Made by a program: the position numbers and the translations under genes
DNA from: a virus
IMG/VR virus record: IMGVR_UViG_3300045988_144754
Strand: one strand, 5' to 3'
DNA: 64,000 bases
In this document: piece after piece, positions 5,303 through 57,389 of the stretch
Position numbering within the stretch: position 1 is the first letter of the stretch
Layout of the letters: every line of letters begins with the position of its first letter
Notes under the pieces: model-generated
Database searches by the model: none
What the model saw: the letters and a program-made list of their open reading frames with translations, nothing else
What the model was told of the DNA's origin: nothing

Positions 5303-8116
5303 TTACAAGGCATAGACGGTCAGTTCTACCTCTCCAATGCCTTCCTTGGCCGTGATAGTTGTATTCACCTTGTCGATAAGACATTTCACACCTCCGATGT
5401 TCCACCACGTCTTCCAGTGGTTAGGTATGTCGGCTATCTGTGCGACAGAAGCCGAACAGCGGATGATGTACTTCTTGCGGTTAAGCAGGAAATAGGCGTA
5501 GGGCAGAATGAAGGTATCGAAAAGACCGCGTGAGCGTATCTTGGTTATCACATTGCCGTTAGTGTCCACCTCGTCGGGGGCGCAGAGTGAAACATCCTTA
5601 TATTCAGGCTTACTGAGCCATGACGGCTCTTTGAAAGCACGTATCTTGAGCGAGAAACGTTCACCTTTGCCTCTGCCTTCCTGAATACCATTATAGTCGA
5701 AGACATTGCCCATCATGTCAATAGAGTCGCAAGCAAGAGCATATTCGCCTGCTGCCGTGCGCCACTTGGAAGTACCGAAGTGGTCGTAGTTATAGTCATA
5801 GGGCTCTGTAGTTGCATTCGTACCGCCGCCTCGCATCATGGCCAAGGCAAAGCCCCATCGTGAATCGTCTTGAAGAGGCGAGTTGCCGTCTTCGGTGTTT
5901 GACGGGTCGTAACTTTCGACGAGTTTCAGAGACTGCTGCATGTAGAAATCGCAGAAAGGCGAGGAGATGGTCTGGTTGATGATTTGCTCGACAAACTCAT
6001 GCTCCATGTCCTCATCGACATAGGCGCAGAGGATAGGCTGTCCTTCCTTGATAACGACACCATAGGTTGTTGTCTTTGAATCGTCATAGTACTTTGCCGT
6101 ATGAGAGCCGTAAGCAGCCTCTATCTCCTTGAAATAGTTGACATCATTGAACGGCACGGGGGTGAAGTCGATGGTGATGTCGTGGATGAAGTCTTCATTC
6201 TCCTCGCTGCAATCGCCATACTCCACACCCTTGTACTGGCCTACCTCGAAAAGTACAGGTTTGAGGTCGGCTGTAGTAGTGGCGTCGCCATTCACCTTCA
6301 CGCGATAGGCATTGCCCGTCTTCGGGTCGATGTAGCATCTTTTATCGCCAGAACTTAAATTATGAAAGAAGTCAACGTAATCTCGATCGTAAACCGTTTC
6401 GTTGTCTCCACTTCCCGGTTCGGGATAGTCGATATAGTCGTAGTCGGTAGCATAGCCCATATTTTTATTCTTGCGGCTGTCCTTGACGTTCTGCTGCTGA
6501 TCCTTGGCATCGCTCTCTTCGGAGTATCGCATACGTACACCCGTTATCTTCTCGCTGACGGGAATGATAGAATGAATGTCTGCGCGGAACGTGAGTGCTG
6601 GCTGTCCACTCTCGCGAAGCACGTCACGGATGAGGTAGGCCGTGACTTTCTTTTGCTCATAGTCGTAGGAGAACTTGATGCCAAAGGCGCTCTCCAAAGA
6701 TGAGATAATCGTGCTGACACTCTCATCAGGAAAGTTGTCGCTGTTGGCCACCATATAGAGCACGTTGGCCTGCACGTTGAACTTAGAGATTTGCGCCTCG
6801 ATGCTGATACCTGTCACCTTGCCGCCCTCTTTTGTCGTCTCTCCCACCTGTATGTGTTCGGAAGTTCCTTCGTTAGTGGTAAGGGTGAGCTCGTTGACCG
6901 TCTTGTCCTCTGCCTTTACGATGTTGATTTTTCCACCACAACCGCGCGACTCCAACCAGGAGTTGATATGATCTTGCTTCTTGAAATAACCTTCCTTAAT
7001 CTCGCCTTCCTTCTTTTTCTTGGCGATGACTTCGGGGTCGTCCTTCTTGTAGTATGTTCCGTGATGTGGATGCTCTTTGGTATCGTAGGCGCAAACGGTG
7101 GTGAAGAAACAGAGGTGCTTCATATCCTCTATCTGCATCAGTGCCGACTTGTCGAAGGTGACACCCAAGTGAGCAAACAGGCAGTCGAGAAAATAGAGTA
7201 CATAGAAACAAATGCCCGACTGCGGACGGCGTGCGTCCAACACCCAATAGGGATAAAGATCTTCGTTAGTCCACTTGCAATCCTTTGTGCTGATAATGTC
7301 GCTCGATGTGGTGCCATCGTCTGCCAGTCCGTGGTGCTTGTAGCAGATACGGGCATTGCAATAGGCTGCGGGACGGCCTGCGCCATCAGTCTCGCCATAG
7401 GCTGCCGATGTGTTGATATAGTCGCCATTCTTGGCGATGGCGGGCTCGTTGACTGTATTGCCGTTGGGGTAGGATCGTGACGACTTTCTCTTGGCATCGG
7501 CCTTCATGTGTAAAGGAGAAAGAATGTTGGTGGTGTACTCCTGGCACGATGCAGGATAGGAGAAGCCAAGAGCCTGCGGTTCGAGCACTTTACTCACGCT
7601 TACGTGCTCGGCATGAATGGTTCGGGTGACAGTCTCATCATCCTTATGCTTACCTCCCTCCACGAATACACTGACATTTACAACAGGGTCGCTCTCGATG
7701 TCTACCCTTACATTGCCTATCTTCTCGCCGATGATCAATTCATCCTTGATGGGGATGTCACGGCAGTTTAGCGAACCGATGAGGTCGCTGAAACTCTGTC
7801 TGCCTGCATTAATACTCATAGAGAGCGAGTCTTTTATCTCTTCAGCATCCTGCATGACGAGCGTACCGTTGCGGAAGGGCAGTCCGTCGGCATGAATGCG
7901 CGTAGGCAAATGCTCCATGTTGACAGCACGAAACGATGCCCGCACGTCATCGATGTTCTTTACCAGCCATCGGTTGCCGTCGAGCGGAATGGAAAACGGA
8001 TAGGCGAACATCTCGTTGTCATTGAACACAGGGTTCTGGTCCTCTATATCGATAGAGAAATCATCGGGCAGCGACACGGGGCGGTCGTTGATAAGTATGG
8101 TGAGATGTGAGTTCAT
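5303..8116 (-). CDS. large virion structural protein (tail or baseplate candidate)
   Basis: 937-aa ORF in the structural operon upstream of the ACP/KAS pair. No recognisable motif. Confidence 0.45.
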   Translation of the reverse strand: MNSHLTILINDRPVSLPDDFSIDIEDQNPVFNDNEMFAYPFSIPLDGNRWLVKNIDDVRASFRAVNMEHLPTRIHADGLPFRNGTLVMQDAEEIKDSLSMSINAGRQSFSDLIGSLNCRDIPIKDELIIGEKIGNVRVDIESDPVVNVSVFVEGGKHKDDETVTRTIHAEHVSVSKVLEPQALGFSYPASCQEYTTNILSPLHMKADAKRKSSRSYPNGNTVNEPAIAKNGDYINTSAAYGETDGAGRPAAYCNARICYKHHGLADDGTTSSDIISTKDCKWTNEDLYPYWVLDARRPQSGICFYVLYFLDCLFAHLGVTFDKSALMQIEDMKHLCFFTTVCAYDTKEHPHHGTYYKKDDPEVIAKKKKEGEIKEGYFKKQDHINSWLESRGCGGKINIVKAEDKTVNELTLTTNEGTSEHIQVGETTKEGGKVTGISIEAQISKFNVQANVLYMVANSDNFPDESVSTIISSLESAFGIKFSYDYEQKKVTAYLIRDVLRESGQPALTFRADIHSIIPVSEKITGVRMRYSEESDAKDQQQNVKDSRKNKNMGYATDYDYIDYPEPGSGDNETVYDRDYVDFFHNLSSGDKRCYIDPKTGNAYRVKVNGDATTTADLKPVLFEVGQYKGVEYGDCSEENEDFIHDITIDFTPVPFNDVNYFKEIEAAYGSHTAKYYDDSKTTTYGVVIKEGQPILCAYVDEDMEHEFVEQIINQTISSPFCDFYMQQSLKLVESYDPSNTEDGNSPLQDDSRWGFALAMMRGGGTNATTEPYDYNYDHFGTSKWRTAAGEYALACDSIDMMGNVFDYNGIQEGRGKGERFSLKIRAFKEPSWLSKPEYKDVSLCAPDEVDTNGNVITKIRSRGLFDTFILPYAYFLLNRKKYIIRCSASVAQIADIPNHWKTWWNIGGVKCLIDKVNTTITAKEGIGEVELTVYAL

Positions 8117-43745: not shown

Positions 43746-45740
43746 ATGCAGCAAGCACATAACATTTACTTAACCAAATTCCAGCAGCAGTCGCTATACA
43801 TGGGAGCCAAGGACGAGCGAGTGATTGCTGCCCGTCGTGTGGGTAAGACCGACGGACTGGTGGCTCCCTATGTCTGGACGGCATCAAACTCCATGCCTGG
43901 TATGCTGGGTGCATGGGTGGCGGTGAGCCGTCAGCAAGGCTTCGGCAAGACCATACCAAGCACCATGGCCGCCATGGAACGTATGTTCGGCTTTACGCAG
44001 GGCATACACTTCGGTTGGGGTCGCCCACCGAAACATGCTCGCGAGAGTATCTTCAAACCTAAGAACTACGACAACTACATCTGGTTTGCCAATGGTTCCG
44101 GTTGGGTGCTTATCTCGCTCTCGCAGACCGCCTCTGCAAACTCTTACACGTTCTCGGCCATGGTAGGCGACGAGGCGAGGTTCTTTCCCTATAAGAAAGT
44201 AACGGACGAGTTGATGCCGGCGCTTTCAGGACAGACGCATCCCTTGGGCGACATCAACTTCTCCGACCACAACCCGATGTATAAAAGTACACGCTTCCTA
44301 TCCGATGCCTCGCTCACAGCCAAAGGGTCGTGGCTGGAGAAAGAGGAGGAAAAGTTGGACTTGACGGTGGAGACGGGAACATACAAGGGCCATACCTACC
44401 GATGGGTGCAGGAGCAGTTGGAAGATTACGCCAACAAGGTGATACGCTACAACGACCTGCTGTATAACGCCAAGAAGACCAGTCACTCGGTTCATGTGGT
44501 GCCGAAGGAGTTGCGCAAGATGATCCGTGCCGTGGCTCTGAAGATGATGAAGCATGAGGGACAGTTCCGCATTATGCCCAACCATGGCCAACACGTCACA
44601 AAAGGCATGGTGGAGATGGCCGTGAACTATAAACTCATTTCGCAGGACGATGCCGAACTGATTTACGATTACGAATACCTTATCACGCCGGAAGAGGATT
44701 TCGAGATGCAGATGTTCCAGCGCTCGAAGAAATTCTCCGAAAACTATCTGCGTGAGCTGCGCCGTGTGGCTTTCTGTGTGCGCCGTGCGTCATCGCTCGA
44801 CAATGTGGACATTCTGGGTGAAGACTATATCCGTCAGATGAAGCGAGATCTTCCACCCTACACTTTCGCCGTTTCAATTCTAAATGTAAAGATTCAAAAA
44901 AGTAATGACGGCTTTTACTCCAACCTCGACATCGATCATGTCCACGGATATATCCCCGACGAGATAGACCCTTTATCGTCTGCAAAATTCACTACGCAAA
45001 AGGTATCGGGCATCATCGGTGGTAAGAAAGTCACGAGCGAGAGTTATCAACCCGACTTCAAGGAGTTGGGCGAGCGAAACGACTCGCGCCAGGATTCCGA
45101 CTGCATCAACTCCCTTCCTCTGTATATAGCCCTCGACTATAATGCCAATATCAATACGTTGGTGGTCGGGCAGATGTATGAGCGTGACGGCATGGAATGT
45201 CTGAACGTCATCAAGAGTTTCTATGTGAAGAACGAGCGCAAGCTGCGTGATGTGATAGCCGATTTCTCCGACTATTACGCACCGAAGCGAGCCATCAACC
45301 GTGACGTGACGTATTTCTATGATGCCACGGCAAAGCAGGGAGCGTCGTATGCTTCGTCGGACGAGCGATTCTACATGACCGTGATTGAAGAGTTGGAGAA
45401 GCACGGTTGGAACGTGACGGCCATAGATATGGGTGCTCCCGAAAAGCACGAGGTGAAGCACAAAATCATCAACGACGGCTTGGCTCACCTCTCCTACCCT
45501 GCCATCCGCATCAACCAACCGAACAACCCCGATCTAATCATTGCCATGCAGCTCTGTGAGGTGCAGATTTCGTACAAGGGATTTCACAAAGACAAAAGCC
45601 AAGAGAAGAAGCCCGAGAGCGAGGACACGCTGCCCTTGCAGCAACGTACCGACTTCACGGATGCCTTCGATACGCTGTACTTAGGTTGCAAGTTCTTCCG
45701 AGTCGGTGGCGGTTGGTTTGTGCTGCCGAGTGGCAGATAG
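43746..45740 (+). CDS. terminase large subunit candidate
   Basis: 664 aa with an N-terminal Walker A-like AARRVGKTDG. It is the last gene of the plus-strand block and is followed by a bidirectional terminator. Confidence 0.5.
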   Translation: MQQAHNIYLTKFQQQSLYMGAKDERVIAARRVGKTDGLVAPYVWTASNSMPGMLGAWVAVSRQQGFGKTIPSTMAAMERMFGFTQGIHFGWGRPPKHARESIFKPKNYDNYIWFANGSGWVLISLSQTASANSYTFSAMVGDEARFFPYKKVTDELMPALSGQTHPLGDINFSDHNPMYKSTRFLSDASLTAKGSWLEKEEEKLDLTVETGTYKGHTYRWVQEQLEDYANKVIRYNDLLYNAKKTSHSVHVVPKELRKMIRAVALKMMKHEGQFRIMPNHGQHVTKGMVEMAVNYKLISQDDAELIYDYEYLITPEEDFEMQMFQRSKKFSENYLRELRRVAFCVRRASSLDNVDILGEDYIRQMKRDLPPYTFAVSILNVKIQKSNDGFYSNLDIDHVHGYIPDEIDPLSSAKFTTQKVSGIIGGKKVTSESYQPDFKELGERNDSRQDSDCINSLPLYIALDYNANINTLVVGQMYERDGMECLNVIKSFYVKNERKLRDVIADFSDYYAPKRAINRDVTYFYDATAKQGASYASSDERFYMTVIEELEKHGWNVTAIDMGAPEKHEVKHKIINDGLAHLSYPAIRINQPNNPDLIIAMQLCEVQISYKGFHKDKSQEKKPESEDTLPLQQRTDFTDAFDTLYLGCKFFRVGGGWFVLPSGR

Positions 45741-45764
45741 GGGGGTGAGTTTTGAATAAAAGGC

Positions 45765-45802
45765 GAAGGGCAGGCGTTATCACAACGGCTGCCCTTCTTT
45801 TT
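45765..45802. terminator. bidirectional rho-independent terminator
   Basis: Stem gaagggcag / ctgcccttc (9 bp) followed by TTTTT, with an A-run on the other side. Sits between convergent genes. Confidence 0.6.
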
Positions 45803-45844
45803 GAATAAACAATTCAGGATATTTTGATGTAATATAATTAGATA

Positions 45845-46489
45845 TTACTTATTTCTTTGTTTACCATGACGATATTTGTGCGTCTTAAAAAGAGGACGAG
45901 TAAGTCTTGCGGAGACTGAGTAAGAAGACGGAGTATTGAATACCTCTGCTTTAAATCTTACCGTATAGCCCACCTTCTTTATATAGCCGTTGATGTGCTT
46001 CACATCCTCCATCGTGAGGGTCGCCATTATGTATGTCTCCCGTAGACACAAAAGCGCATACCTGCCGATAAGATTAAAGAAACCCATCGAATAGTCGCTA
46101 TATGGCATCGGCAAAGTATCGTCTGCCACATAGAAGGTCTCAACGTTGTTCGACTCGTGTATCAAAAAAGCATAACACATGACCATCTTTCCTTTCTCAC
46201 AGGGACTTTTCAAAATGGCAATAATATACGTCCCAGGATGTTCGGAATCTAAAAACTTGTAATATATGCCGTTAGCAGCATCATAACGGTCGCGGTCTCC
46301 AGGGGCAGCACTCCCCATACTAAACTCTATATTCTTGTTCCTCTCAGCACCACTGCCATTTGCGGACAACTGGCTTATGCGCTGTTCCAGCTCTTTAATG
46401 CTCTTAGCGTGCTCGTCGAGCGTGTCTATCACAGACCCCATATTGTCCATCAATGCCTGCAATAGTTTTTCTTTTAATTGTTTACACAT
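45845..46489 (-). CDS. hypothetical protein
   Basis: 214-aa ORF. Confidence 0.4.
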   Translation of the reverse strand: MCKQLKEKLLQALMDNMGSVIDTLDEHAKSIKELEQRISQLSANGSGAERNKNIEFSMGSAAPGDRDRYDAANGIYYKFLDSEHPGTYIIAILKSPCEKGKMVMCYAFLIHESNNVETFYVADDTLPMPYSDYSMGFFNLIGRYALLCLRETYIMATLTMEDVKHINGYIKKVGYTVRFKAEVFNTPSSYSVSARLTRPLFKTHKYRHGKQRNK

Positions 46490-46565
46490 ATCTTTTTATG
46501 TTTTAAAATTTACTCTTTTTCTTCCTTCAGCATTACAAATTGCTTTGTGGATTGGGATGTTATCA

Positions 46566-47192
46566 TTACAAGAACACTGGCAGTCTGCGCCACACGCCAC
46601 CATTCGGCTGAAACTCCTCCTGCCATTCCCGATATTCCACTTCAAACTTTGCACCATAAAAAGCCAAACCTTTGAGATGAAGGCTCTCGATGAATTTCTC
46701 CTGCTCCTCACGAGTCATAAAGTCATTAGGCATGAGGATGATGCGGTTGCTACGGACATGGATGAAGAACTCTGGCGCAAAATCTCGCTTCGTCAGCATC
46801 TTTTTAATCGCCGCATAGTCGCACTTGTTTTTAGGCGAAAAGTTTATGCCATCCACATAGGTAAAGAGTTGATTGTAGTGGACCATTACTTCCTCGTTGA
46901 GAAACATCCATCTACCAGAAGTGTAGATATATAGCTGCTTGATGTTAGGATAATCATGGCGCAGGTGTGAGCATATATCTATGATACCTGTCACATAGAA
47001 TGGGTCTCCACCAGTGAGCATAACGGTATGTGCAGCCTTCAGCTCCTCTACGGTAGCCACTGGCACCGTATCGAGGTCGTACTGCTTGTTGCAGCAAAAC
47101 GGACAAGAGTTACCACACCATCTGTTAATCATCAAATGAATGGCTCCCTTATCGGCTCCCGGCTCGTCAGTATATTTACGTTTTGTTTCCAT
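46566..47192 (-). CDS. radical SAM 4Fe-4S protein (NrdG/QueE/PflA-activase-like)
   Basis: CGNSCPFC is a CxxxCxxC cluster, followed by TGGDPF. Confidence 0.6.
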   Translation of the reverse strand: METKRKYTDEPGADKGAIHLMINRWCGNSCPFCCNKQYDLDTVPVATVEELKAAHTVMLTGGDPFYVTGIIDICSHLRHDYPNIKQLYIYTSGRWMFLNEEVMVHYNQLFTYVDGINFSPKNKCDYAAIKKMLTKRDFAPEFFIHVRSNRIILMPNDFMTREEQEKFIESLHLKGLAFYGAKFEVEYREWQEEFQPNGGVWRRLPVFL

Positions 47193-47218
47193 ATTATATA
47201 AATTGTTTAATTCAATCT

Positions 47219-47878
47219 TTAATCTTCCAATCTATTCCGCATCATCGACAGCCAGCTCACCACCGATTGATAGTCAGTAGAGCGAAAACGATAACGCTTG
47301 TAGTTGGCTGTTATCTCGCCGACCCAGCGGATGCGCTGCGACTTCACGAAGCCGATACCTCGGACAACATGACCTGCAGAGCCCCTGCCTTTCTGCTCGC
47401 GTCCTTTTGCGTCGCGCTGTATCTCCTGATAGATAGTGCCGGTACGACGGGCACCGCGTGAATGAGAGGAAATAATCGGCTCGTTCTGAGGGGCAAAATC
47501 TTTCATCATAGTTAGCATTTTATAAGCCTTTTCCCCTACTTGTCTGCGATATTCAGGCGATTTTTTTAATTTGTATTTATAAGCCAATCTCGCCAAAGCG
47601 AGTTCGCCTATACCCAAATATAACATTAACTTAGAATTTGGCATGGTGGCGTAATTGTCGCACAGCCATTTCACTTGACTGCCCGTAATTCTGTCGCCTC
47701 GCGCCCTCATCATTGCCATTGTAGCACGATCTTTTTCCCATCCATGCGAAACAGCAAGATGATGTAATCCGGCACGGCTAATATCATACTGTGAACAGAG
47801 CATGACATTCGCAGTAGTCGGATAAACCAAAGAGAGAGAATGAATCTCGTCTTCGGAAAGAGAGCTATAGTGTCGCAT
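47219..47878 (-). CDS. hypothetical protein
   Basis: 219-aa ORF. Confidence 0.4.
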   Translation of the reverse strand: MRHYSSLSEDEIHSLSLVYPTTANVMLCSQYDISRAGLHHLAVSHGWEKDRATMAMMRARGDRITGSQVKWLCDNYATMPNSKLMLYLGIGELALARLAYKYKLKKSPEYRRQVGEKAYKMLTMMKDFAPQNEPIISSHSRGARRTGTIYQEIQRDAKGREQKGRGSAGHVVRGIGFVKSQRIRWVGEITANYKRYRFRSTDYQSVVSWLSMMRNRLED

Positions 47879-47888
47879 ATCTTTTCTT

Positions 47889-48935
47889 TTATTTATTGTT
47901 TTCTTCCTTTACCGCACTGGTCGCAGGCTTCTCATAAATATCGAATTTGCGTTTGGTTGGACACCAACAGATTCCGGCGGCGTGCAGCGCATTGTCTATT
48001 GTGATTTCAGTCGCAAGATCGGCTGGAATGATAGACAGAGGGACACCATCTTGGCAGAGGTGGTCGAGATAGATACATGGACCAAAGTATATGCCGTCAT
48101 TAAAACCAATAAAGGTCATGCTGTACTCAAAACCTCCAATATCTTTGTTTTTCTTCACCATGGAATACAGGTGGACGGTTCTGTTCTCTACATCGTAGCA
48201 GTTGAAAATGGCTGCATAAGAAGCCAGTCCGCAGCCAGGCTTTGCGTAGGTAAGCTCTACGTACTGACCAGTCTCGAATGGCGGAAGGAGTTCAAAACCT
48301 TTACGACTGGAGAAAAGACGACCCGTGAATTTTTCGATTTTACGGTAAAACTCTCGGGTGTCTTCTTCGTTGAGTCTGCAGTAACTATTGACGGAAATCT
48401 TACACTTTTCGCCATCCGAGGTCTTGGGGCATTCCTTTATACTCTGGATGTCTGAATAACTGTCCTCAAAAACTTCCACCAGCGGGATAAAAGTGTTATA
48501 ATCATCATTGTTTACCTTATCGACAATAAAGAATGGGCCGTCGTATTCGTAAGGACGTCTCACTACCGTGCCCTTGCGCCACGTCAGCACGTCCCATTTC
48601 GCTTTACTTGGATTAGGATGTATCACACAGTCGGAACCTAAAAGGTCTGAGATTTCGATGTTTCCTACTTTGAGTTTCAAACAGCCCTCCTTATTGAACG
48701 TAAGGTAGGCGGTCTTGGGGTCGGCTTCTTTATCGGCGATGGCACAGAAAATCTCGTCATCCGTCACGTCTATCAACGTCATCCAACCGCACAGGTCGCA
48801 CCACACTTGCATTCCTGCCCTGCCGTATTGAAACAGAACCTCCTTCACGTTTTCTAAATTTCTCTGGCTCATAATATATACATTTAACAAATTGATTAAA
48901 CATTCTGTTCTCTTTACTGGTCGCTGTCCGAACAT
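47889..48935 (-). CDS. hypothetical protein
   Basis: 348-aa ORF. Confidence 0.4.
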   Translation of the reverse strand: MFGQRPVKRTECLINLLNVYIMSQRNLENVKEVLFQYGRAGMQVWCDLCGWMTLIDVTDDEIFCAIADKEADPKTAYLTFNKEGCLKLKVGNIEISDLLGSDCVIHPNPSKAKWDVLTWRKGTVVRRPYEYDGPFFIVDKVNNDDYNTFIPLVEVFEDSYSDIQSIKECPKTSDGEKCKISVNSYCRLNEEDTREFYRKIEKFTGRLFSSRKGFELLPPFETGQYVELTYAKPGCGLASYAAIFNCYDVENRTVHLYSMVKKNKDIGGFEYSMTFIGFNDGIYFGPCIYLDHLCQDGVPLSIIPADLATEITIDNALHAAGICWCPTKRKFDIYEKPATSAVKEENNK

Positions 48936-48968
48936 GAAAAACAGTCCACGAGTTTTAGTTCTATTTCA

Positions 48969-49619
48969 TCACTCATCGGCAGGAAAACTGACCTTTGCCT
49001 CTGCCATTCTGATCTTGCAGATCACACCAAGGCCTTCAATGACACCCAGGAATGAGCTACATTCATGACAGAGCTTAAAACCTACAACAGGACGGTCTTG
49101 TTCATAACCGCAGGACGATTCTTTTTTCATGTAGAGTTTTTTGTCCTCCACTAAGTAGTGAAATTCTTTTACAATCCTCTTCAGCTTCACATTTTCCAAT
49201 TCCAGTTCATTGCAATGGTCGCGCATCTGCTGCATCTCTTCCTGCGTCTGCTTCGACGGCGCTTCCACTTGTGGCGCATCCTTACTGCTCAACTGGTGAA
49301 CTACGTCATTGTAGTCGGCCGTGAGTTGATGCACGCGCTGCTCAAGTTCTCCGTTCTTTCTTTCCAGTTCGTCGCAATGATCACGCATCTTCAGCATCTC
49401 GCCAAGCGTCTGCTTTGACGAGTCTTCATCCTTGCGCTTCTCCAGTCCGTGCTGTTGGCGCACGGCTTCGTTGTAGTCATCCGTGAGCTGATGCACGCGC
49501 TGCGTCATCTCAATGTTCTCTGCCTTCAGGTCGGCTACGATATAGGAAAGAGCCAACATGCGTTTGTTTTCTTCTGTTGTCATTGTTTCTTGGGTTTTAT
49601 GTTTGTTACTCATATTCAT
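48969..49619 (-). CDS. coiled-coil protein with an internal ~50-aa repeat and a Cys-containing C-terminus
   Basis: ELERKNGELEQRVHQLTADYNDVVHQL is repeated at the protein and nucleotide level. Confidence 0.4.
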   Translation of the reverse strand: MNMSNKHKTQETMTTEENKRMLALSYIVADLKAENIEMTQRVHQLTDDYNEAVRQQHGLEKRKDEDSSKQTLGEMLKMRDHCDELERKNGELEQRVHQLTADYNDVVHQLSSKDAPQVEAPSKQTQEEMQQMRDHCNELELENVKLKRIVKEFHYLVEDKKLYMKKESSCGYEQDRPVVGFKLCHECSSFLGVIEGLGVICKIRMAEAKVSFPADE

Positions 49620-49779
49620 ATACTATATGCGGTGTGGTATTGCCCAGTCCGTCGCGAGGATCAGTAACACCCCCCGACCATTGAGGTTACGGCATGGGCT
49701 ATCAGCTTGCGCGGTCGGCTCTTTACGAGGCCCTTGCCGTCCTTGCCGCTGCGTACCCATCCGATGTAATACTTGTCAG
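49607..49779. repeat. direct repeat R1 (~175 bp, about 88% identical to 51678..51843)
   Basis: Shared sequence actatatgcggtgtggtattgcccagtccgtcgcgagg...ccgatgtaatacttgtca. Carries a small ORF. Confidence 0.7.
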
Positions 49780-49783
49780 TCAT
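49661..49783 (-). CDS. small repeat-borne ORF (MTDKYYIGWVRSGKDGKGLVK...)
   Basis: 39-aa ORF inside repeat R1. Its paralog at 51668..51846 differs mostly at synonymous or conservative positions. Confidence 0.35.
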   Translation of the reverse strand: MTDKYYIGWVRSGKDGKGLVKSRPRKLIAHAVTSMVGGCY

Positions 49784-50588
49784 CGGTCTGTGGTAAGGTC
49801 AGATATATTCGTTCGTTAGCCTTGCACGACTCCCCTTGCATTCTACCTGCCTCTAACCCTGCTTTCTTTAGAGCTTCGTCACGCTCATGCTCCAGTTTTA
49901 TGCAATATTCAGTTAGGCGATTGTATTCTTTCTGCAAGGCGTTGAAATCCTCGCGCAGTTGCTCGGGAGTGTGAATCTCTGAATCTAATGGCACAAGACG
50001 CTGCTTTCTCTTGTCCCATATTTTCCCGATTCTCTCCACGGCATTGTTGAGAAGTTTTTCTTCCGTAGGCGTGGCGTATCTCAGTTCGATGCTTACTTCT
50101 TCTGCGCATGTACCGAGAAGATCAAGATGGACGTTAGGAGTAAGTTCGTCGCTGTTTTTGCACAAGCAGGCGTATGTTCTTATCTTGGGATAAGAATCTA
50201 TAAATTCCACTTCGTTGAAAATCACAACGAAGGTCAGAATGTTGCCATCTTTATTCTTAATATCCATTGCCACGATGTCACCGGGCTGGAAGTTGAGCAC
50301 ATTCCAACTTCGGTAAAGATGCGATAGAAACAGCATACACTCTCCTCTTTCAAAGTTCGCTAAACGCCCATTGCAACGAAAAAGAATGTCGTATGCTTCA
50401 TCCTCGTCTGGATTAGGTCGGCCCATCTCAATGCCCGAAGCATTTGTTTTTTTCACATTCAGATAGCCGAACAAAGGTGAGTAAAGCGTGTCACCTTCAG
50501 TCAAACCGTAGAGGAAGGCTGCCATTTTTTCGATCTCGAAAAATTTAGCTTTTATCTCAGAGAAGCTTCTTGTTGCTCTTTGTTTCAT
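49776..50588 (-). CDS. hypothetical protein
   Basis: 270-aa ORF. Confidence 0.4.
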   Translation of the reverse strand: MKQRATRSFSEIKAKFFEIEKMAAFLYGLTEGDTLYSPLFGYLNVKKTNASGIEMGRPNPDEDEAYDILFRCNGRLANFERGECMLFLSHLYRSWNVLNFQPGDIVAMDIKNKDGNILTFVVIFNEVEFIDSYPKIRTYACLCKNSDELTPNVHLDLLGTCAEEVSIELRYATPTEEKLLNNAVERIGKIWDKRKQRLVPLDSEIHTPEQLREDFNALQKEYNRLTEYCIKLEHERDEALKKAGLEAGRMQGESCKANERIYLTLPQTDD

Positions 50589-50641
50589 TATGTTTCTATT
50601 TTAAATTATTACTCATATTCTATCTTGTGATGTTATTCATA

Positions 50642-50932
50642 TTACCCTTTTTCTACTAATTCCCATGTCTTTTCATCGTGAGAGGAATAGACGGTATAGG
50701 TAAGTTCACAACAGTTCTTGGCTGTCCTCACTTCATGCAACATTTCTCTCGTATAGAAGCAACGCTCCATAAGGTACGCCAATGCCTTAAACTGGTCTTG
50801 AGTAAGAAAGACCTCCTGGTCGCCACAAGTGATGCCTACGTTGTCAGTAATGGTAGAATAGAAGATCTTTACGTCCTCTTCCTTTCCTGTGTCCTCGTTC
50901 TTTACGATTATCTTTTCTGTATTAAAACTCAT
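50642..50932 (-). CDS. hypothetical protein
   Basis: 96-aa ORF. Confidence 0.35.
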   Translation of the reverse strand: MSFNTEKIIVKNEDTGKEEDVKIFYSTITDNVGITCGDQEVFLTQDQFKALAYLMERCFYTREMLHEVRTAKNCCELTYTVYSSHDEKTWELVEKG

Positions 50933-50948
50933 TAATTATTTCTCCTTT

Positions 50949-51062
50949 TATTTATAATTCAACAAACACGCAAATTCCACCACTTGCAGCGATCAGTGCG
51001 TTTACAAGCTTACTCCCATCCTCGCCATTCGAGCCGATGGCTAACGGGATGCACGGAAATGT
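50949..51062. repeat. repeat A+B (contiguous copy). A is the 3' end of a paralog of the 55063..55386 ORF, and B is its upstream region.
   Basis: A matches 55059..55122 and B matches 55447..55497. In this copy the ORF body between A and B is missing. Confidence 0.6.
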
Positions 51063-51076
51063 AGATGTGGGTCATG

Positions 51077-51538
51077 TTACTCTTGAAGATACTCGCCGTA
51101 TAGTTTCCACTCCTTATCATGGATGTTGCCGACAACCTCAAAGCTCTTCATCTTCTCTTGCAAGAGATCATCTGGGATGCCGTCTTCAAGACCACCTACG
51201 TCAGAGTAGGGATTTTTTACCGTAACGATACCAAAGCAAGCTTTCTTCTCACAATAATACACTACGGCATAGTAGTCGTCGCAAGTATTGTATTCGATTC
51301 TGCTATACGGATATTCGTTCGATCGCAATACGTCGCCTTCATAAATCTCCTTGCCGTTCTTGTCGGTGAAGCCAGTGAACTGGCATACAGTAGAGGGGTC
51401 AACAGCAAACGTAAAAACAGGCCGTCCATCACTGACTGGATTATTTTTTACGAGAGTTTGGTCACCCACATGGGACAAATCGCCGTAATTCCACTTCCCG
51501 TCCTCTATACTCTTACCCTTAAACTTAATTGTTCTCAT
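51077..51538 (-). CDS. YopX-family protein
   Basis: Start trimmed to MRTIKFKGK. CQFTGFTDKNGKEIYEGDVLRS is the YopX signature. Paralog of 56949..57389. Confidence 0.6.
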   Translation of the reverse strand: MRTIKFKGKSIEDGKWNYGDLSHVGDQTLVKNNPVSDGRPVFTFAVDPSTVCQFTGFTDKNGKEIYEGDVLRSNEYPYSRIEYNTCDDYYAVVYYCEKKACFGIVTVKNPYSDVGGLEDGIPDDLLQEKMKSFEVVGNIHDKEWKLYGEYLQE

Positions 51539-51667
51539 TCTATAAATCCTTTTATATTTAATTAGAAACCAAAGATACAACCTCCGACATATTTCTGAGC
51601 CATATAAACGGTCACAGGGATGCAACCATCATAGGCTTCTTTCGGGATAATTCTCAATTTCATGTCT

Positions 51668-51846
51668 TATTCAAATTTATATACTATATGCGGTGTGGTA
51701 TTGCCCAGTCCGTCGCGAGGGTCGGCAATACCTCTCCCGACCATTGTCGTCACAGCATTGGCTATCAGCTTGCGCGGTCGGTACTTTACGAGGCCCTTGC
51801 CGTCCTTGCCGGAACGTACCCATCCGATGTAATACTTGTCAATCAT
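51668..51846 (-). CDS. small repeat-borne ORF (MIDKYYIGWVRSGKDGKGLVKYRPRK...)
   Basis: 58-aa paralog of 49661..49783 inside repeat R1-prime. Confidence 0.35.
51678..51843. repeat. direct repeat R1-prime
   Basis: See 49607..49779. Confidence 0.7.
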
Positions 51847-52040
51847 ATTCTATCAATACAATGGTGTGCTGTCCGTGCTCGTCGTAGAGTCCTGCCCATC
51901 CGTCGTAGCGTGCGGACAGTGCGGTGGAGTACCCCCGGACGTGGGCAGAGATAGGATGTGCGTTGCACGAAAGGGATTTGTTTAATCATACGTTATCAAT
52001 ACCATGTTGTCTTTGCCAACCGAGGTGAGAGTGTTGGTTG

Positions 52041-52051
52041 TCCCCCCCCCC
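52041..52051. repeat. poly-C homopolymer tract (11 nt)
   Basis: tgtcccccccccccgttt, seen directly. Confidence 0.9.
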
Positions 52052-52137
52052 GTTTATCTCCATTCGCTGACAGAAGCGTCCGTTGGAGGGATGCTTGCGG
52101 TCGGACGGATTGTCGGGGTCACGGCCTCGGAAGGCTG

Positions 52138-52635
52138 CTATGCGAAAGTGTAGCATAGGAGGTTGTCTTTTGTTACTGTTGTTATCGAATTGCTCCACGC
52201 CCACGGACTTGGGCGGTGATACTTGTCGCTGTATTTGCACCCTCCCCGGTCGCCATGTTCACGACGGAAGGCTTTGGCTTCCTCGGTGCGGTAGTGGACG
52301 AGGACGGAACGATTAATCATACTCTATCAATATTTTCGGTTTATCCACGTCGTGACCTTTACCTCCCCCGGCTATGCACAAGGCTATGCCGCGCGGCGAC
52401 ACGATGATGCCGTTCTGCGAGGGGCTGTAGGAGCCGAGGATGATGGGGCGAGGGTTGTTATTCATATATTACAATTACGCCAGTGGCTTTGAAATTTGCT
52501 CCTTGGGTTGAAACGTCAAGAACATCGTATGCACCCTTCTTGAAATAATTGGCTTTGATAGTGCGTGATGTGCCATCGGATTCGGTGTTGAAAGGGAATG
52601 TCATAATTCTACTGCTACAAAGAACACGTCGCTGC
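52138..52635 (-). pseudogene. frameshifted fragments of a C5-cytosine methyltransferase C-terminal half (TRD, motifs IX and X)
   Basis: Three overlapping short ORFs in three frames. They carry SRTIKANYFKKGAYDVL (compare RTLTARYHKDGSEILI), SPRGIALCIAGGGKG (compare M.HhaI GISITLSAYGGG), and a degenerate TEEAKAFR...WSNSITTV (motifs IX and X). Confidence 0.45.
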
Positions 52636-52779
52636 AATCGGTGCGCGACATGATAGTTATTGCTATACCGTGAAATGCTCCGTTGAAGCGTTCTGCGCTG
52701 AACATCGAGGCAGGGCAGGTGAGCAAACTACCCCCCAATCATATCAGCTATGATACGGATTACACGGTCGGGTGGATTA

Positions 52780-54096
52780 TCAGTTCTCATTCTTCCTCTC
52801 CATATTCTCCTTGAACATTTCTCCGAAACCATCCCAATAATGAGCGTCCATCCATTCGGGCGAGGATAAAAACTGCTCATACATCATTGTCGCAGGTATC
52901 GTCCGTAGGTATTTCTCGCAAGCCTTAACGTCTTTGTCCCACAAATCCATCCGCTCCATTTCTATCTGAAAATACGTCTTGAGGAACATTGCCGCCTCAT
53001 GTGTCGGTGGCAGGTCGAATTGAAGGAATAAGGCATTGTCGGAGTCGTTTGCCTTGAGGAACTTGCTCACGGCATCGTCCTTGAGGAAATAGCGGTCAGA
53101 CACTTCCTCTTCGAGCACGTCTTCCAATCGGGTAAGCAGCTCGAAAGGTTCTGGGAACTGATAGTCGAATGCCACGTCTCGGCGCATGGAGAGGCAGAAA
53201 ACACGGTCGCGGTTTTGTGGCACACCGTAGTTCTTGGCGTTGAGTCGCGTCCAACGGCTCACATAGCCGAGCGACGAGAGTTTGTCGAGCCACTTCTGAA
53301 AGTCTGGCAAGAACTTCTGGCTTACCAGTGCCGCCACGTTCTCCTGCAAGAGATACTTCGGGCGAAGCACCTCCACAGCATCCGCCACACGCCAAAGCAG
53401 TGCGCTTCGGGTGTCGCTGCCCTCCTGCAAGCCCATTTGCTTGCCCGCCTGACTGATGTCCTGGCAAGGCGAGGAATAGGTGAAGAGGTCTACTTCGCGG
53501 CCTTCGAGCGAGCTTTCCACCTCGTGCCAGTCAATCTTGGTGATGTCGCCCAGGGCGCAGTCGGCAAACTGAGGGAAGACGAGGTTGTGCATCTGACAGG
53601 CGTATTTGTCGATGTCGCTCCATCCTATACATGTCCATCGGAAGTCGGGATGCCACTCGCGGAGCACATCGGCTGCCATAAGCTGCGAGTCGTAGCCGGA
53701 GAACGTGGTAAGGAATATCTTCTCCTCGTTCTTGTTGGCTGCGGTGGGCGGCAGGGCGGGTAATGTGTCTTCGAGGTCGTCGAAGAGCGAGAGTTGCTTT
53801 TGCTTACGAGGTTTGGGCGTAGGATAGAAAAGTTGCTCGTAGATGTGGGCCAACACGTCCACCACGATGCTGTTTCCGGCTTGCTTGTACTGCTGTGAGG
53901 CAGATATAGCCATGTCTTCGGGCTTGCCCTTGCCTTTCCAGTCGGGCAGACGTTCGGCTGCTTGAGCATTGCTGCTCTGCATCGTGCCGATTACATTGTC
54001 ACGAACGCCCATCAGACGAAAACACTCCTTGGGTGTGAGCTTGCGGATGGCATAGCTCTTGATGGTGCGGTCGGTGAAATTGAGTTTTGTAATCAT
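52780..54096 (-). CDS. DNA (cytosine-5)-methyltransferase with permuted motif order
   Basis: N-terminus carries motif IX (IRKLTPKECFRLMG) and motif X (QYKQAGNSIVVDVL). Then come motifs I (FSGYDS), IV (SSPCQDIS), VI (LQENVAAL) and VIII (QNRDRVFCL). Confidence 0.65.
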   Translation of the reverse strand: MITKLNFTDRTIKSYAIRKLTPKECFRLMGVRDNVIGTMQSSNAQAAERLPDWKGKGKPEDMAISASQQYKQAGNSIVVDVLAHIYEQLFYPTPKPRKQKQLSLFDDLEDTLPALPPTAANKNEEKIFLTTFSGYDSQLMAADVLREWHPDFRWTCIGWSDIDKYACQMHNLVFPQFADCALGDITKIDWHEVESSLEGREVDLFTYSSPCQDISQAGKQMGLQEGSDTRSALLWRVADAVEVLRPKYLLQENVAALVSQKFLPDFQKWLDKLSSLGYVSRWTRLNAKNYGVPQNRDRVFCLSMRRDVAFDYQFPEPFELLTRLEDVLEEEVSDRYFLKDDAVSKFLKANDSDNALFLQFDLPPTHEAAMFLKTYFQIEMERMDLWDKDVKACEKYLRTIPATMMYEQFLSSPEWMDAHYWDGFGEMFKENMERKNEN

Positions 54097-54267
54097 ATTG
54101 TTGCTGTTATTATTCGTATTCTATTAAAATTCCTGGAGCATGATTATCTGCCTTGACGCATCTATTTATTCCTTCTAACGGAGGTCTTTTATAGTCAGGC
54201 GAAACATTCCAATAAATGCTCGATATTGCATGAGCGTGATAGTCTATTGTGATGTTATTCATATTCT

Positions 54268-54642
54268 TCAATCAAAAGAACGCTTCAGATTGCAAGTCGC
54301 CAATATAACAATAACGCTGCACTTCGTATTCGCTGATAAACATTCGCCAATTCTGTTCGTCATGATCGAAATGTTCATGTACGAAGCATGTACACCGAGT
54401 CGCCAACAGAGAAGCGATCCTATGCAATGCGGTTGTTCTCTGGCTGGATGCCATAACTGAACGATATTACGATATTCGGCTCTTTTATCCGTTTCTACAT
54501 CGTCAGACAAGGAATCCTTAAAACTCACGCCTTTTTTGTCGGAATCGACAAAAACGCAATTATCCGTAGTCTGACTTTCCAACAAGTCGGTAGCATCCCT
54601 TGACATGAGTATCACGTCGGGCAGTCTGTATTCTCTTTTCAT
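54268..54642 (-). pseudogene. frameshifted paralog of 55509..55880
   Basis: The N-terminal 90 aa align with the 55509..55880 protein. The conserved C-terminus (DEQNWRMFISEYEVQRYCYIGDL) is in another frame, at ORF 54272..54454. Confidence 0.4.
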
Positions 54643-54671
54643 AAATCTTATTAGTTAAATGTTCTATAAGC

Positions 54672-55043
54672 CTATTCAGCTACTCTTTTTACTGTATTCA
54701 AATTATACAAGGACAAATCTAAAACGTGTTTGAACTCATACGATACGACATTTTCATAATGCGTTCCTTCACCATCGGTCATTATTACGTTGATATAATC
54801 TTTATTTACAGACGAAACAACCTGCTTGACATCCGAGGCTCTGTGCAAATCGCATCCACCACCTTTGGTAAACACACACAAGAAATACCCATCACAATTC
54901 TGATAGTCTATTTCTCTATCATTTTTTATCTCTGTCTTTAGCTTTCGCTCTGTCCACCAAATGTAAGCCATAAACAAAATTGTTACGACAAACGTAAACA
55001 ACATTGATGCGAGCCAGAGCCGCCAATCATTCGTTATAATCAT
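54672..55043 (-). CDS. small membrane protein
   Basis: 123 aa with an N-terminal TM helix. Confidence 0.35.
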   Translation of the reverse strand: MIITNDWRLWLASMLFTFVVTILFMAYIWWTERKLKTEIKNDREIDYQNCDGYFLCVFTKGGGCDLHRASDVKQVVSSVNKDYINVIMTDGEGTHYENVVSYEFKHVLDLSLYNLNTVKRVAE

Positions 55044-55062
55044 AATTTATTTCTCATTTTAT

Positions 55063-55386
55063 TTATAATTCAACAAACACGCAGATTCCGCCACTTGCAG
55101 CGGTCAGTGCGTTTACGAGTTTACCCCCACCGACTGTGCGGCTGCGCCTTAGAGCTGAAGACGGATAACTGAGGTCGGCTGCTCCTGGGCATGGGCAGTC
55201 GGTGTAGCCAAGTTCGGTGGCTTGACGTATGCGAAGAAACGTTGCGCCGTCTCGGTCCACCAACTGAAGGAACGGTCGGTCGGTGGTGGAGTAGATTCGG
55301 TAGAGCGATCCGTCGGGATAGCGGCCATACAGCTTGCCGTCCTTGCGGATAGTACCGCGCTTGTAGTGAGGATCAATCATATTCAA
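55063..55386 (-). CDS. small hypothetical protein (MIDPHYKRGTIRKDGK...)
   Basis: 107 aa. Its C-terminal coding sequence is repeated as a start-less relic at 50949..51012. Confidence 0.4.
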   Translation of the reverse strand: MNMIDPHYKRGTIRKDGKLYGRYPDGSLYRIYSTTDRPFLQLVDRDGATFLRIRQATELGYTDCPCPGAADLSYPSSALRRSRTVGGGKLVNALTAASGGICVFVEL

Positions 55387-55508
55387 TCATTATACAGTGT
55401 GGGCATTTGTGGTCGGTGGCTCGAAGAGCGGGCGAGAAGTTTTCCCCCCATCCTCGCCATTCAAGCCGATGGCTAATGGGATGCACCGAAATCTTAATGT
55501 CAGTCATA

Positions 55509-55880
55509 TCAAACGAACCATTCGGGTTCCAAATTAGAAATATAGCAATAACGCTTTATGTTGTTAGTGCTGATGAATAAATGCCAATTTTCATCGTCAT
55601 GGCTGTAATGGTTGTGTACGAAAAATTTTCCGTCTTGACACCAACAGAGAAGTTGACCTATGCAATGAGGCTTTTCTGTGGCAGGGGACCACAACGAAAC
55701 GATGTTGCGATACTCGGCTGTAATGTCCATCGTTACACCTTCCGAAGGTTCGTCCTTGAAACTTACACTTTGTCCGTCAGATTCAACGCAGATGCAAGCA
55801 TCCTGGGTTGAGTTTGACATAAAAGTGGATGCTTTATCCGACATTAACAGCACGTCGGGCAGTCGTTTTTCTCTTTTCAT
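55509..55880 (-). CDS. hypothetical protein (intact paralog of 54268..54642)
   Basis: 123 aa. Confidence 0.45.
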   Translation of the reverse strand: MKREKRLPDVLLMSDKASTFMSNSTQDACICVESDGQSVSFKDEPSEGVTMDITAEYRNIVSLWSPATEKPHCIGQLLCWCQDGKFFVHNHYSHDDENWHLFISTNNIKRYCYISNLEPEWFV

Positions 55881-55928
55881 AATTATTTGAGTTTTATAAT
55901 GTTAATCATTCGTCCGCTTCCACCACTT

Positions 55929-56480
55929 TCAACCCATGTCTTGCTGCTTCCGTTTCTGTCCTTCCTTGCAAACTATCTTGCCTCTGCCCTTCAGTCGGAG
56001 ACAGAAATATTCACAATTCCAACATGCGCAGCTATCCACTCTTACTGTTTCGGGATTATCTTTGCAGAACGGGTCCCCCATCTCCACCATATCGTGAGGA
56101 CATTCGGTGTTCTTGACGAAAGTGAATCCTTTTTCCTCAAGCAAGTCGATAAGTTTGCTGCACTCTTGCTTTAAGTTCACGTTCTCGCTTCGCATTTTGA
56201 CAAGCGCTTTTCTGAGGTTGTCGGTCTCACGCCCTTGCGCCATGTTAGCGTTGCAGACGTTGGAGTAAGCTTTATGCAATTTCTCGAAATTAGCCGTCTT
56301 CATGTCCAGTTCCACTAACACATCCTTATGCTTTTCTTCCAGATTGTGGAGTTTTTTTACTACCCTGTTATTGTCTCTGGCAAGACGATGAATTTTGAGT
56401 TCCATCGCCACATTTTCGACTTCCAATTCTCCCAAACGTCTTGCATAGGCAACACGATTTCTAAATTTCTGATGTTTCAT
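55929..56480 (-). CDS. coiled-coil protein with Cys-rich C-terminus
   Basis: 183 aa. C-terminus CPHD...CKDN...CACWNCEYFC. Confidence 0.4.
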   Translation of the reverse strand: MKHQKFRNRVAYARRLGELEVENVAMELKIHRLARDNNRVVKKLHNLEEKHKDVLVELDMKTANFEKLHKAYSNVCNANMAQGRETDNLRKALVKMRSENVNLKQECSKLIDLLEEKGFTFVKNTECPHDMVEMGDPFCKDNPETVRVDSCACWNCEYFCLRLKGRGKIVCKEGQKRKQQDMG

Positions 56481-56948: not shown

Positions 56949-57389
56949 CTACCATTCTGGGTCGTGGATGCAGCCGACCAACTCACAGTCCTCAAGTTTC
57001 TGTTGCGTGATTTCGTCAGAGATGCCGTCAGAAATGCCACGCACAGCGGATTTCGGGTTTTTGACACAGGTGAGCAGAAACATCGCCTCTTCATCACTCC
57101 ACTCTATAATGCCGAAGTAATTATCACGCGCATCATCCTCCATGCAACTGAAGGGGTATTCGTCCGAGCGAAGAATATCGCCCTCATAAATCTCCCTACC
57201 GCTCTTGTCGAGGAAGCCGGTGAACTGGCAGACGGTATCAGGGGCAACTTTGTAGGGGATGTTTCTATTCAACATACATTCCTTTTGTCTATCCTCGATA
57301 ATGTAGGTGTTACCATTCTCCTTGTAGAAGAATCCACAAATCCATTCTTGATTATCAAGGCGTTTAGCCTTAAACTTAATTGTTCTCAC
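56949..57389 (-). CDS. YopX-family protein
   Basis: MRTIKFKAKRLDNQEW...CQFTGFLDKSGREIYEGDILRS. Confidence 0.6.
   Translation of the reverse strand: MRTIKFKAKRLDNQEWICGFFYKENGNTYIIEDRQKECMLNRNIPYKVAPDTVCQFTGFLDKSGREIYEGDILRSDEYPFSCMEDDARDNYFGIIEWSDEEAMFLLTCVKNPKSAVRGISDGISDEITQQKLEDCELVGCIHDPEW

Follow-up and report, generated by a model that had tools for sequence, protein, structure and literature searches.

A duplicated small gene beside a permuted C5 cytosine methyltransferase in a phage genome as a candidate free-standing target-recognition module

The window analyzed here is a 64,000-nucleotide (nt) stretch of viral DNA (IMG/VR record IMGVR_UViG_3300045988_144754) in which a sequence of about 175 nt occurs twice, upstream of two different genes. 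What does this repeat encode, and how did the window come to carry two copies of it? The first-pass annotation, which recognized the pair, suggested a mobile mini-cassette or a shared leader peptide. The answer that we propose is that the repeat is a small gene, p59, and that p59 and other small open reading frames (ORFs) nearby may encode separate recognition subunits for a C5 cytosine methyltransferase that lacks a target-recognition domain (TRD) of its own, so that together they would form a split multispecific methyltransferase. Judging from sequence comparisons, we give this reading a probability of roughly 0.6.

The repeat is a duplicated gene

A repeat search and a MAFFT alignment recovered the pair in the window and refined its limits. 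Two repeat blocks compose it, D2 (49673-49783 versus 51736-51846, 90% identity) and D6 (49606-49671 versus 51667-51732, 89% identity), which are divided by a single 2-nt indel. The copies, referred to as R1 and R1', are as follows.

49606..49783, minus strand, 178 nt: R1, the second p59 copy, frameshifted at a G6 run; lies between a 270-amino-acid (aa) gene and a coiled-coil gene.
51667..51846, minus strand, 180 nt: R1', an intact 59-aa p59 gene, putatively of TRD type; it closes the mini-ORF array that lies downstream of the methyltransferase core.

The two copies are ~89% identical, and such identity across 180 nt cannot be chance. Similarity spans a 59-codon ORF (p59) from its ATG to its TAA and collapses immediately beyond both ends, so that the repeat unit coincides exactly with one small gene. 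Thus, the pair is a duplicated gene and not a non-coding cassette. Like all genes in this part of the window, it lies on the minus strand. R1' translates to an intact protein of 59 aa (MIDKYYIGWVRSGKDGKGLVKYRPRKLIANAVTTMVGRGIADPRDGLGNTTPHIVYKFE). In R1, the G6 run (C6 on the plus strand, 49670-49675) breaks the frame after codon 37, leaving a 40-aa ORF (49661..49783), and the remaining homology (GVTDPRDGLGNTTPHIVYEYE, then a stop) is read in another frame beyond the run. A small ORF had been described in each copy, but only R1' encodes it at full length. R1 is probably a pseudogene or a switched-off allele, and R1' is best explained as the working copy inside the methyltransferase module. The genes that follow the copies also differ in part from the first description: as annotated, the coiled-coil gene (48969..49619) comes directly after R1, with which it overlaps, whereas R1' is followed by a 33-aa ORF (51562..51663), and YopX (ATG at 51538) comes only after it.

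The first-pass annotation had read the differences between the copies as a sign of selection on the peptide and had named a count by codon position as the check on this. Run on the pair, that count is uninformative: 18 differences fall 7/4/7 by codon position, with a ratio of nonsynonymous to synonymous rates (dN/dS) of 0.46. Selection is evident, however, at the level of the family. Among 44 distinct intact p59 copies out of 85 fetched loci, the median dN/dS is 0.21, start and stop codons are conserved, and variable columns are distributed 30/22/54 by codon position, an excess at third positions. p59 is, at this level, a conserved protein-coding gene under purifying selection. Codons 34 to 41 stand out as hypervariable, with a ratio of nonsynonymous to synonymous polymorphism (pN/pS) of 0.75 versus 0.17 to 0.20 in the flanks. 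Two other readings of the repeat were rejected: an RNA element, since an Rfam scan of 48500-56000 was empty, and stop-codon reassignment, since no frame is conserved past the stops and an indel distinguishes one copy from the other.

The p59 family comprises at least 152 homologous clusters (55 to 61 aa) on metagenome contigs of up to ~100 kb labelled Caudoviricetes (gut). When a p59 profile was run against 1.84 billion representatives, it matched small proteins only, with no full-length enzyme among the matches. Neither Pfam nor PHROGs contains a family for p59 or the other mini-ORFs, and a profile search of the PDB gave only spurious matches to antibody frameworks ('YIGWVR..GKG', E >= 0.05). 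Megablast and tblastn searches of the region and of p59 against 50,697 GenBank phages gave no match, and we therefore take the p59 region to have no cultured relative there.

Homology of p59 to target-recognition domains

The methyltransferase that accompanies p59 is encoded by a single gene.

52780..54096, minus strand: core C5 cytosine methyltransferase, 438 aa (PF00145 at 1.2e-49); circularly permuted, with motifs IX-X preceding motifs I-VIII; no TRD.

Residues 193 to 350 of the core align to residues 117 to 277 of M.MpeI (motifs IV-VIII), and residues 15 to 49 align to M.MpeI 333 to 367 (the motif IX region); PHROG matches to the core are split in the same way. Catalytic motifs I-X all lie within the 438 aa. 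The protein begins 14 aa ahead of motif IX (MITKLNFTDR..) and ends in KENMERKxx before the stop in ~80 related loci (KENMERKNEN in the window), and its C-terminal ~90 residues are predicted to be helical. No TRD-like segment was found in the core by the M.MpeI alignment, in the helical tail, or from the conserved ends in ~80 loci; because it starts 14 residues before motif IX and its C-terminal tail is helical, we consider it to be a core without a TRD. The core is 435 to 440 aa long in the related loci, and at least 4,570 metagenome proteins are homologous to it at E <= 1e-20.

Three independent lines of evidence (fusion, homology, and neighbors) point to p59 as a free-standing TRD-type module of a C5 cytosine methyltransferase. 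The first is that related locus L063 encodes the core and p59 in one 486-aa ORF. A search with this ORF found at least 33 clusters of 479 to 491 aa that combine the same permuted core with an in-frame p59-type module, and these clusters show several different junctions and two module variants. The fused module is C-terminal and follows motif VIII (order IX-X-I..VIII-TRD), a permutant topology that has been discussed previously and in which the TRD belongs at that site (PMC5944983). The second line comes from enzymes of canonical motif order, as encoded in loci L070 and L072, where the variable region reads LFGHSRDAKGHVANFHKLDCAHCCTTGSVGGG.. In a search for which we collected 120 homologues of the L070 enzyme, p59 hidden Markov models matched more than 100 canonical C5 methyltransferases (PF00145) in the stretch that adjoins motif IX on its N-terminal side, the best match being residues 259 to 292 of P0395 (40 bits, E 4.7e-10, Z = 31,678). 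The third line is that single-chain enzymes of multispecific type on similar contigs (578 to 613 aa; e.g., P0337 and P0341) carry tandem TRDs, which mini-ORFs of the window match one by one, four of them by BLASTP and p59 by profile.

In the window itself, p59 is not part of the methyltransferase polypeptide; it is a separate ORF that lies 0.9 kb (R1') or 3 kb (R1) from the core. The hypervariable loop, which follows a conserved NAVTT motif, is likely the part of p59 that would read the DNA.

Further features of the core were seen in its homologues. One homologue carries the source label 'uncultured Prevotella sp.'. In the Bacillus phages Deep Blue, BCP01, and PK16 (GenBank), the core aligns in one piece over the 3' end of one annotated methyltransferase gene and the 5' end of the next, making fusion of tandem genes a possible route to the permuted motif order. 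Some relatives have an intein right at the catalytic PCQ cysteine of the methyltransferase (L079, 600-1670; P0190, 843 aa; ..TIVHN before and CQDISQAGK after the insertion point), which comprises Hint, intein-splicing, and LAGLIDADG domains. In others, reading on in frame past the stop of the core leads straight into a cysteine-rich ORF that resembles a zinc ribbon (..CPQRCWDID..CPHCGAEIEV..; L053, ~6360-6560; L069, ~2750-2950).

The mini-ORF array, its poly-G tracts, and the origin of the two copies

About nine to ten small ORFs of 44 to 107 aa flank the core on both sides. Those other than R1' are listed below in the direction of transcription, followed by the 33-aa ORF that comes after R1'; 'cluster' refers to families of mini-ORFs in related loci, and TRD-type assignments are putative.

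55373..55507, minus strand: 44-aa mini-ORF (..FSPALRATDHKCPHCIMIEYD, then stop); cluster 6.
55063..55386, minus strand: 107-aa TRD-type ORF (..RIRQATELGYTD..SSALRRSRTVGGGKLVNALTAASGG..); BLASTP 2.8e-10, 87 matches, to the 'QATKKGY..RRGRV..SPTLTA' TRD of multispecific enzymes.
54110..54271, minus strand: 53-aa mini-ORF (..INRCVKADNHAPGILIEYE, then stop), immediately upstream of the core; cluster 7.
52458..52637, minus strand: 59-aa TRD-type mini-ORF (..SRTIKANYFKKGAYDVL..ATGVIVIYE, then stop); 61% identity, BLASTP E 8e-13, to one TRD of multispecific P0326.
52313..52465, minus strand: 50-aa mini-ORF (..SPSQNGIIVSPRGIALCIAGGGKG..KILIEYD, then stop); 8-nt overlap with its upstream neighbor; cluster 4, 62 copies in related loci.
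52138..52320, minus strand: 60-aa TRD-type mini-ORF (HYRTEEAKAFRR..SNSITTVTKDNLL..); BLASTP 9.5e-5 to a TRD of multispecific P0416.
51982..52156, minus strand: TRD-type mini-ORF (RGRDPDNPSDR..EINGGG/TTNTLTSVGKDNMVLITYD, then stop); out of frame at G10 (C10 on the plus strand, 52043-52052).
51839..51989, minus strand: mini-ORF (..GYSTALSARYDGWAGLYDEHGQHTIVLIEYD, then stop); out of frame at G5 (C5 on the plus strand, 51932-51936); its stop overlaps the R1' ATG by 8 nt (ATGATTGA).
51562..51663, minus strand: 33-aa ORF (MKLRIIPKEAYDGCIPVTVYM..); follows p59 in most relatives (synteny).

When repaired by three-frame translation, the 51982..52156 mini-ORF matches P0391 (BLASTP 1.9e-6) and, by tblastn, the interior of annotated phage cytosine methyltransferases (1e-8). 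Intact 50-aa versions of the 51839..51989 mini-ORF are found in relatives (cluster 2, 54 copies). Searches of 50,697 GenBank phages by tblastn with the 107-aa and 50-aa ORFs gave no match. To the first-pass annotation, the 107-aa protein looked like a distant relative of p59. A direct relationship is not borne out (BLASTP E = 3.4; hhalign not significant), but this ORF too is a TRD-type mini-gene by its BLASTP match, and the N-terminus of the 107-aa ORF is joined to p59 in two natural chimeras (P0108 and P0110). Others among p59 and the mini-ORFs are P0024, P0124 (the 33-aa ORF and p59), P0144, and P0150.

The C-terminus of most array mini-ORFs reads (I/V)x(I/L)EY(D/E) before the stop. Across 86 loci, ORFs with this motif fall into ~13 families; 462 of them lie on the methyltransferase strand and 3 on the other. 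For 306 of these 462 ORFs, the next ATG begins 8 nt before the end of the stop codon (ATGATTGA, ATGACTGA, ATGAATAA), an overlap that accounts for the M(I/T)D peptide start pointed out in the first-pass annotation. p59 itself overlaps the start of the gene after it, which makes translational coupling between the two plausible. The constant frame offset that this overlap imposes on successive ORFs, together with the G runs inside modules, would also suit recoding, in which ribosomal frameshifting or transcriptional slippage at these sites joins the modules, with one another or with the core, into one multi-TRD polypeptide. We regard recoding as improbable, since each ORF has its own ATG, the junctions (GAT TGA, GAA TAA) contain no known slippery motif, ~140 nt separate the core stop from the first downstream module in the window, and where a lineage does have a fusion, it arose in the DNA itself.

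Three modules of the window (R1, 51839..51989, and 51982..52156) are out of frame at their G runs. The tract of the 51982..52156 type (the RGRxPxNPSDR..TTNTLTSV mini-ORF) ranges from 6 to 11 nt among relatives (L001-L064), with only G8T in frame, and measures 7, 8, 6, 6, and 9 nt in the near-identical contigs L001-L005, which come from different samples. In p59, G6 and G7 alleles are out of frame. Tracts also lie in the Gly loop of the TRD of the canonical enzyme, G8 in L070 (5693-5850) and G7 in L072 (6643-6800), both out of frame; intact 348-aa versions of this enzyme exist (P0298 and P0299). This loop is homologous to the site at which about 20 of the p59 protein clusters carry a frameshift, with the main frame downstream still conserved. 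These ORF-internal homopolymers, whose varying length among close relatives sets the frame, fit hypermutable contingency tracts of the kind found in phase-variable genes, although the length differences may instead reflect ordinary decay or homopolymer assembly error.

The frameshifts raise the question of whether the mini-ORFs, p59 included, are merely the broken remains of a single-chain multispecific enzyme, poorly translated or not at all and without function. Disruption of ~12 of 76 p59 copies in relatives would be expected of such remains, as would the frameshifts in the three window modules and the low-confidence structure predictions described below. Yet the 44 distinct intact p59 copies have the low dN/dS and conserved start and stop codons reported above, and ~13 mini-ORF families have retained the C-terminal motif and the 8-nt overlap over 86 loci. 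In addition, ~80 loci keep a core with every catalytic motif and no TRD, which makes little sense if recognition is not supplied from elsewhere. On balance, we consider decay unlikely.

Across ~80 related loci, p59 occupies one position: the core lies 0.5 to 6 kb upstream of it, and the 33-aa ORF and a homologue of the coiled-coil gene 48969..49619 come after it. It is intact in 67 of 75 loci that have the core within 8 kb versus 4 of 9 that do not; as the loci are related and not phylogenetically independent, this is only suggestive that p59 intactness tracks the presence of the core. In two loci (L020 and L026), p59 is intact and no methyltransferase lies within 8 kb of it. Taken with the TRD homology, they would suit small proteins that act alone, as sequence-specific DNA binders that block restriction sites or control genes or as decoys for host enzymes, independently of the methyltransferase. 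Such independence is hard to reconcile with the near-universal synteny with a TRD-less core and the repeated fusion of p59 to it, and we know of no isolated TRD of ~59 aa that binds DNA stably. We therefore hold this possibility to be a slim one.

Two p59 copies are found only in the window and in its 97.7% identical relative L006, and comparison with L070 suggests how the second was gained. From 44000 to 51538, the window is collinear with L070 at 97.6% (coiled-coil gene, R1, 270-aa gene, 96-aa gene, a remnant described below, and YopX), and collinearity resumes at 55937. Between these blocks, L070 has a 1.26-kb canonical methyltransferase module, whereas the window has a 4.4-kb module composed of the core, the mini-ORF array, R1', and the 33-aa ORF. 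R1 is therefore part of the backbone, and R1' arrived with the swapped module. The best explanation of the duplication, from this alignment, is that a canonical single-chain module like that of L070 was replaced by a core-plus-array module carrying its own p59, in an exchange between phage lineages. The R1 frameshift allele is common to L006, L070, and L072; because they share it, it is inherited and not a one-off sequencing error. In L070 and L072, both of which lack a TRD-less core, this allele is the only p59 copy.

These results bear on the two explanations first offered for the repeat, a mobile mini-cassette and a leader peptide or upstream ORF common to unrelated downstream genes. It is true that a different gene follows each copy and that the start of that gene overlaps the stop region of p59. 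A mobile element is nevertheless at odds with the fixed position in ~80 loci, with doubling confined to the window and L006, and with the absence of terminal repeats and of flanking similarity, and the module swap already accounts for the second copy. A leader would not be expected to be a homologue of methyltransferase TRDs that is fused to the enzyme itself in relatives, whose peptide sequence is under selection, and whose place after the methyltransferase is fixed. Both explanations now appear very improbable.

The remnant in the collinear block combines parts of two array ORFs.

50952..51075, minus strand: deletion-fused remnant, made of 21 codons from the 5' end of a 44-aa ORF copy and ~20 codons from the 3' end of a 107-aa ORF copy.

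It was recognized from repeats D7 (51010-51075 versus 55442-55507, 85%) and D4 (50929-51018 versus 55040-55129, 90%) and is also present in L070. The same 9 kb contains three diverged paralogue pairs: YopX (51077-51538 and 56949-57389), a 123/124-aa protein (54268-54642 and 55509-55880), and coiled-coil proteins with a C-terminal cysteine cluster (48969-49619 and 55929-56480). The 9-kb region is a mosaic of duplicated modules. Within the first coiled-coil gene there is an internal 162-nt tandem duplication (49200-49533; repeats D5 and D8, 71 to 79% identity). Outside this region, a 208-aa ORF at 46566-47192 has a CGNSCPFCC motif, which we take to resemble a radical-SAM cluster.

Proposed assembly and relation to known systems

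How might a TRD-less core and an array of small proteins work together? Under the split-methyltransferase reading, the chain of mini-ORFs would be translated by termination-reinitiation coupling. Each small protein would then dock non-covalently on the core, in trans, in place of the missing small domain, and each docked module would supply one sequence specificity, with p59 as one such subunit. A phage so equipped could place 5-methylcytosine (5mC) at several targets and thereby escape several host restriction systems. The sequences show the repeat and its coding status, purifying selection, TRD homology, fusion to the core in relatives, synteny, a core that lacks a TRD, the overlap geometry, and the frameshifts; that the parts assemble in trans, methylate several targets, counter restriction, or switch at G runs is what we infer.

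Several results weigh against this proposal. AlphaFold2 predicted p59 alone at low confidence (predicted local distance difference test [pLDDT] of 47) and so lends no structural support, and for a natural core-p59 fusion it gave a pLDDT of 58, with 28 to 47 in the p59 part. The 44-, 50-, and 53-aa mini-ORFs have no statistical link to TRDs by BLASTP against the multispecific enzymes. In hhalign comparisons with 10 other mini-ORF families, p59 gave no significant match except for the shared C-terminal strand (E 0.01, 9 columns). The out-of-frame modules in the window and the disrupted p59 copies in relatives are what decay would also produce, and the two loci with p59 and no nearby methyltransferase do not fit a subunit of that enzyme. 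Finally, binding of the small proteins to the core and activity of the core are both predictions only.

A more ambitious form of the proposal is a Type I-like C5 system, in which a TRD-less, permuted core would be served in trans by ~10 interchangeable subunits of 45 to 110 aa from translationally coupled mini-genes, several of them switched individually by hypermutable poly-G tracts, so that a gut phage population would have a combinatorial methylation repertoire as bet-hedging against the restriction systems of Bacteroidales. This form is tentative and distinctly less probable than the split enzyme as such. Bacteroidales are suggested as hosts only because of the single Prevotella label on a homologous core.

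If the split-methyltransferase reading is correct, there appears to be a widespread clade of gut phages that keep their recognition modules as free mini-proteins beside a core unable to recognize DNA alone. Multispecific methylation against restriction would then be built, and would evolve, in a manner that is new. The clade would also offer a natural set of small, exchangeable specificity modules for targeted 5mC and would account for many unannotated phage ORFs of 45 to 60 aa. Since fused and unfused versions both occur in nature, the hypothesis is directly testable. For annotation, the lack of a Pfam or PHROG family is no reason to drop ORFs such as p59 and its fellow mini-ORFs as spurious.

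Multispecific C5 methyltransferases of Bacillus phages carry tandem TRDs of ~40 to 60 aa, each for one target, on one catalytic core and serve to evade restriction. M.SPRI, M.phi3TI, M.rho11sI, and M.H2I are represented among the references cited within PMC8936443. Like the M.SPRI type, the window has several different TRD-type modules for one core. In M.SPRI-type enzymes, however, the TRDs lie between motifs VIII and IX of a single chain, whereas the modules of the window are separate ORFs with their own stops on both sides of a permuted, TRD-less core.

Active C5 enzymes formed from separate polypeptides are known in M.AquI and M.EcoHK31I, and artificial fragment complementation has been described for M.SssI, M.MpeI, M.HhaI, and M.BspRI; splits in the variable region are well tolerated, and complementation between fragments split there is efficient (PMC3404938, PMC5944983). 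The system proposed here resembles M.AquI and M.EcoHK31I in that the enzyme would be assembled from separate polypeptides, as the TRD-less core and the natural fusions suggest. Those enzymes consist of two fixed halves that divide the conserved motifs between them; in the window, by contrast, the core retains all ten motifs, and what is split off is the recognition module alone, which comes in many alternative forms.

Natural circularly permuted C5 enzymes include M.BssHII, M.Alw26I, M2.Eco31I, M.Esp3I, and M2.BsaI (PMC5944983). The core shares with the M.BssHII type the placement of motifs IX-X before motifs I-VIII and a break in the variable region. M.BssHII-type enzymes keep a TRD, mostly at the N-terminus ('type H'), whereas the window core has none and its fused relatives carry theirs at the C-terminus ('type J'-like).

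The specificity (HsdS) subunits of Type I systems and phase-variable methyltransferases, in which repeat tracts switch activity (PMC7672463, PMC3936762), offer an analogy only, namely, a separate exchangeable recognition subunit and homopolymer tracts. The enzyme class served by HsdS is N6-adenine, the fold is unrelated, and switching at G tracts is putative here.

Descriptions of C5 methyltransferases have so far placed the TRD within the enzyme chain, with two fixed two-subunit enzymes as the only natural exceptions (PMC3404938), and arrays of free-standing TRDs did not turn up in our literature search. Each component is known, whether permuted cores, multispecific TRD arrays, or heteromeric enzymes; their combination, as proposed for this locus, appears to be new.

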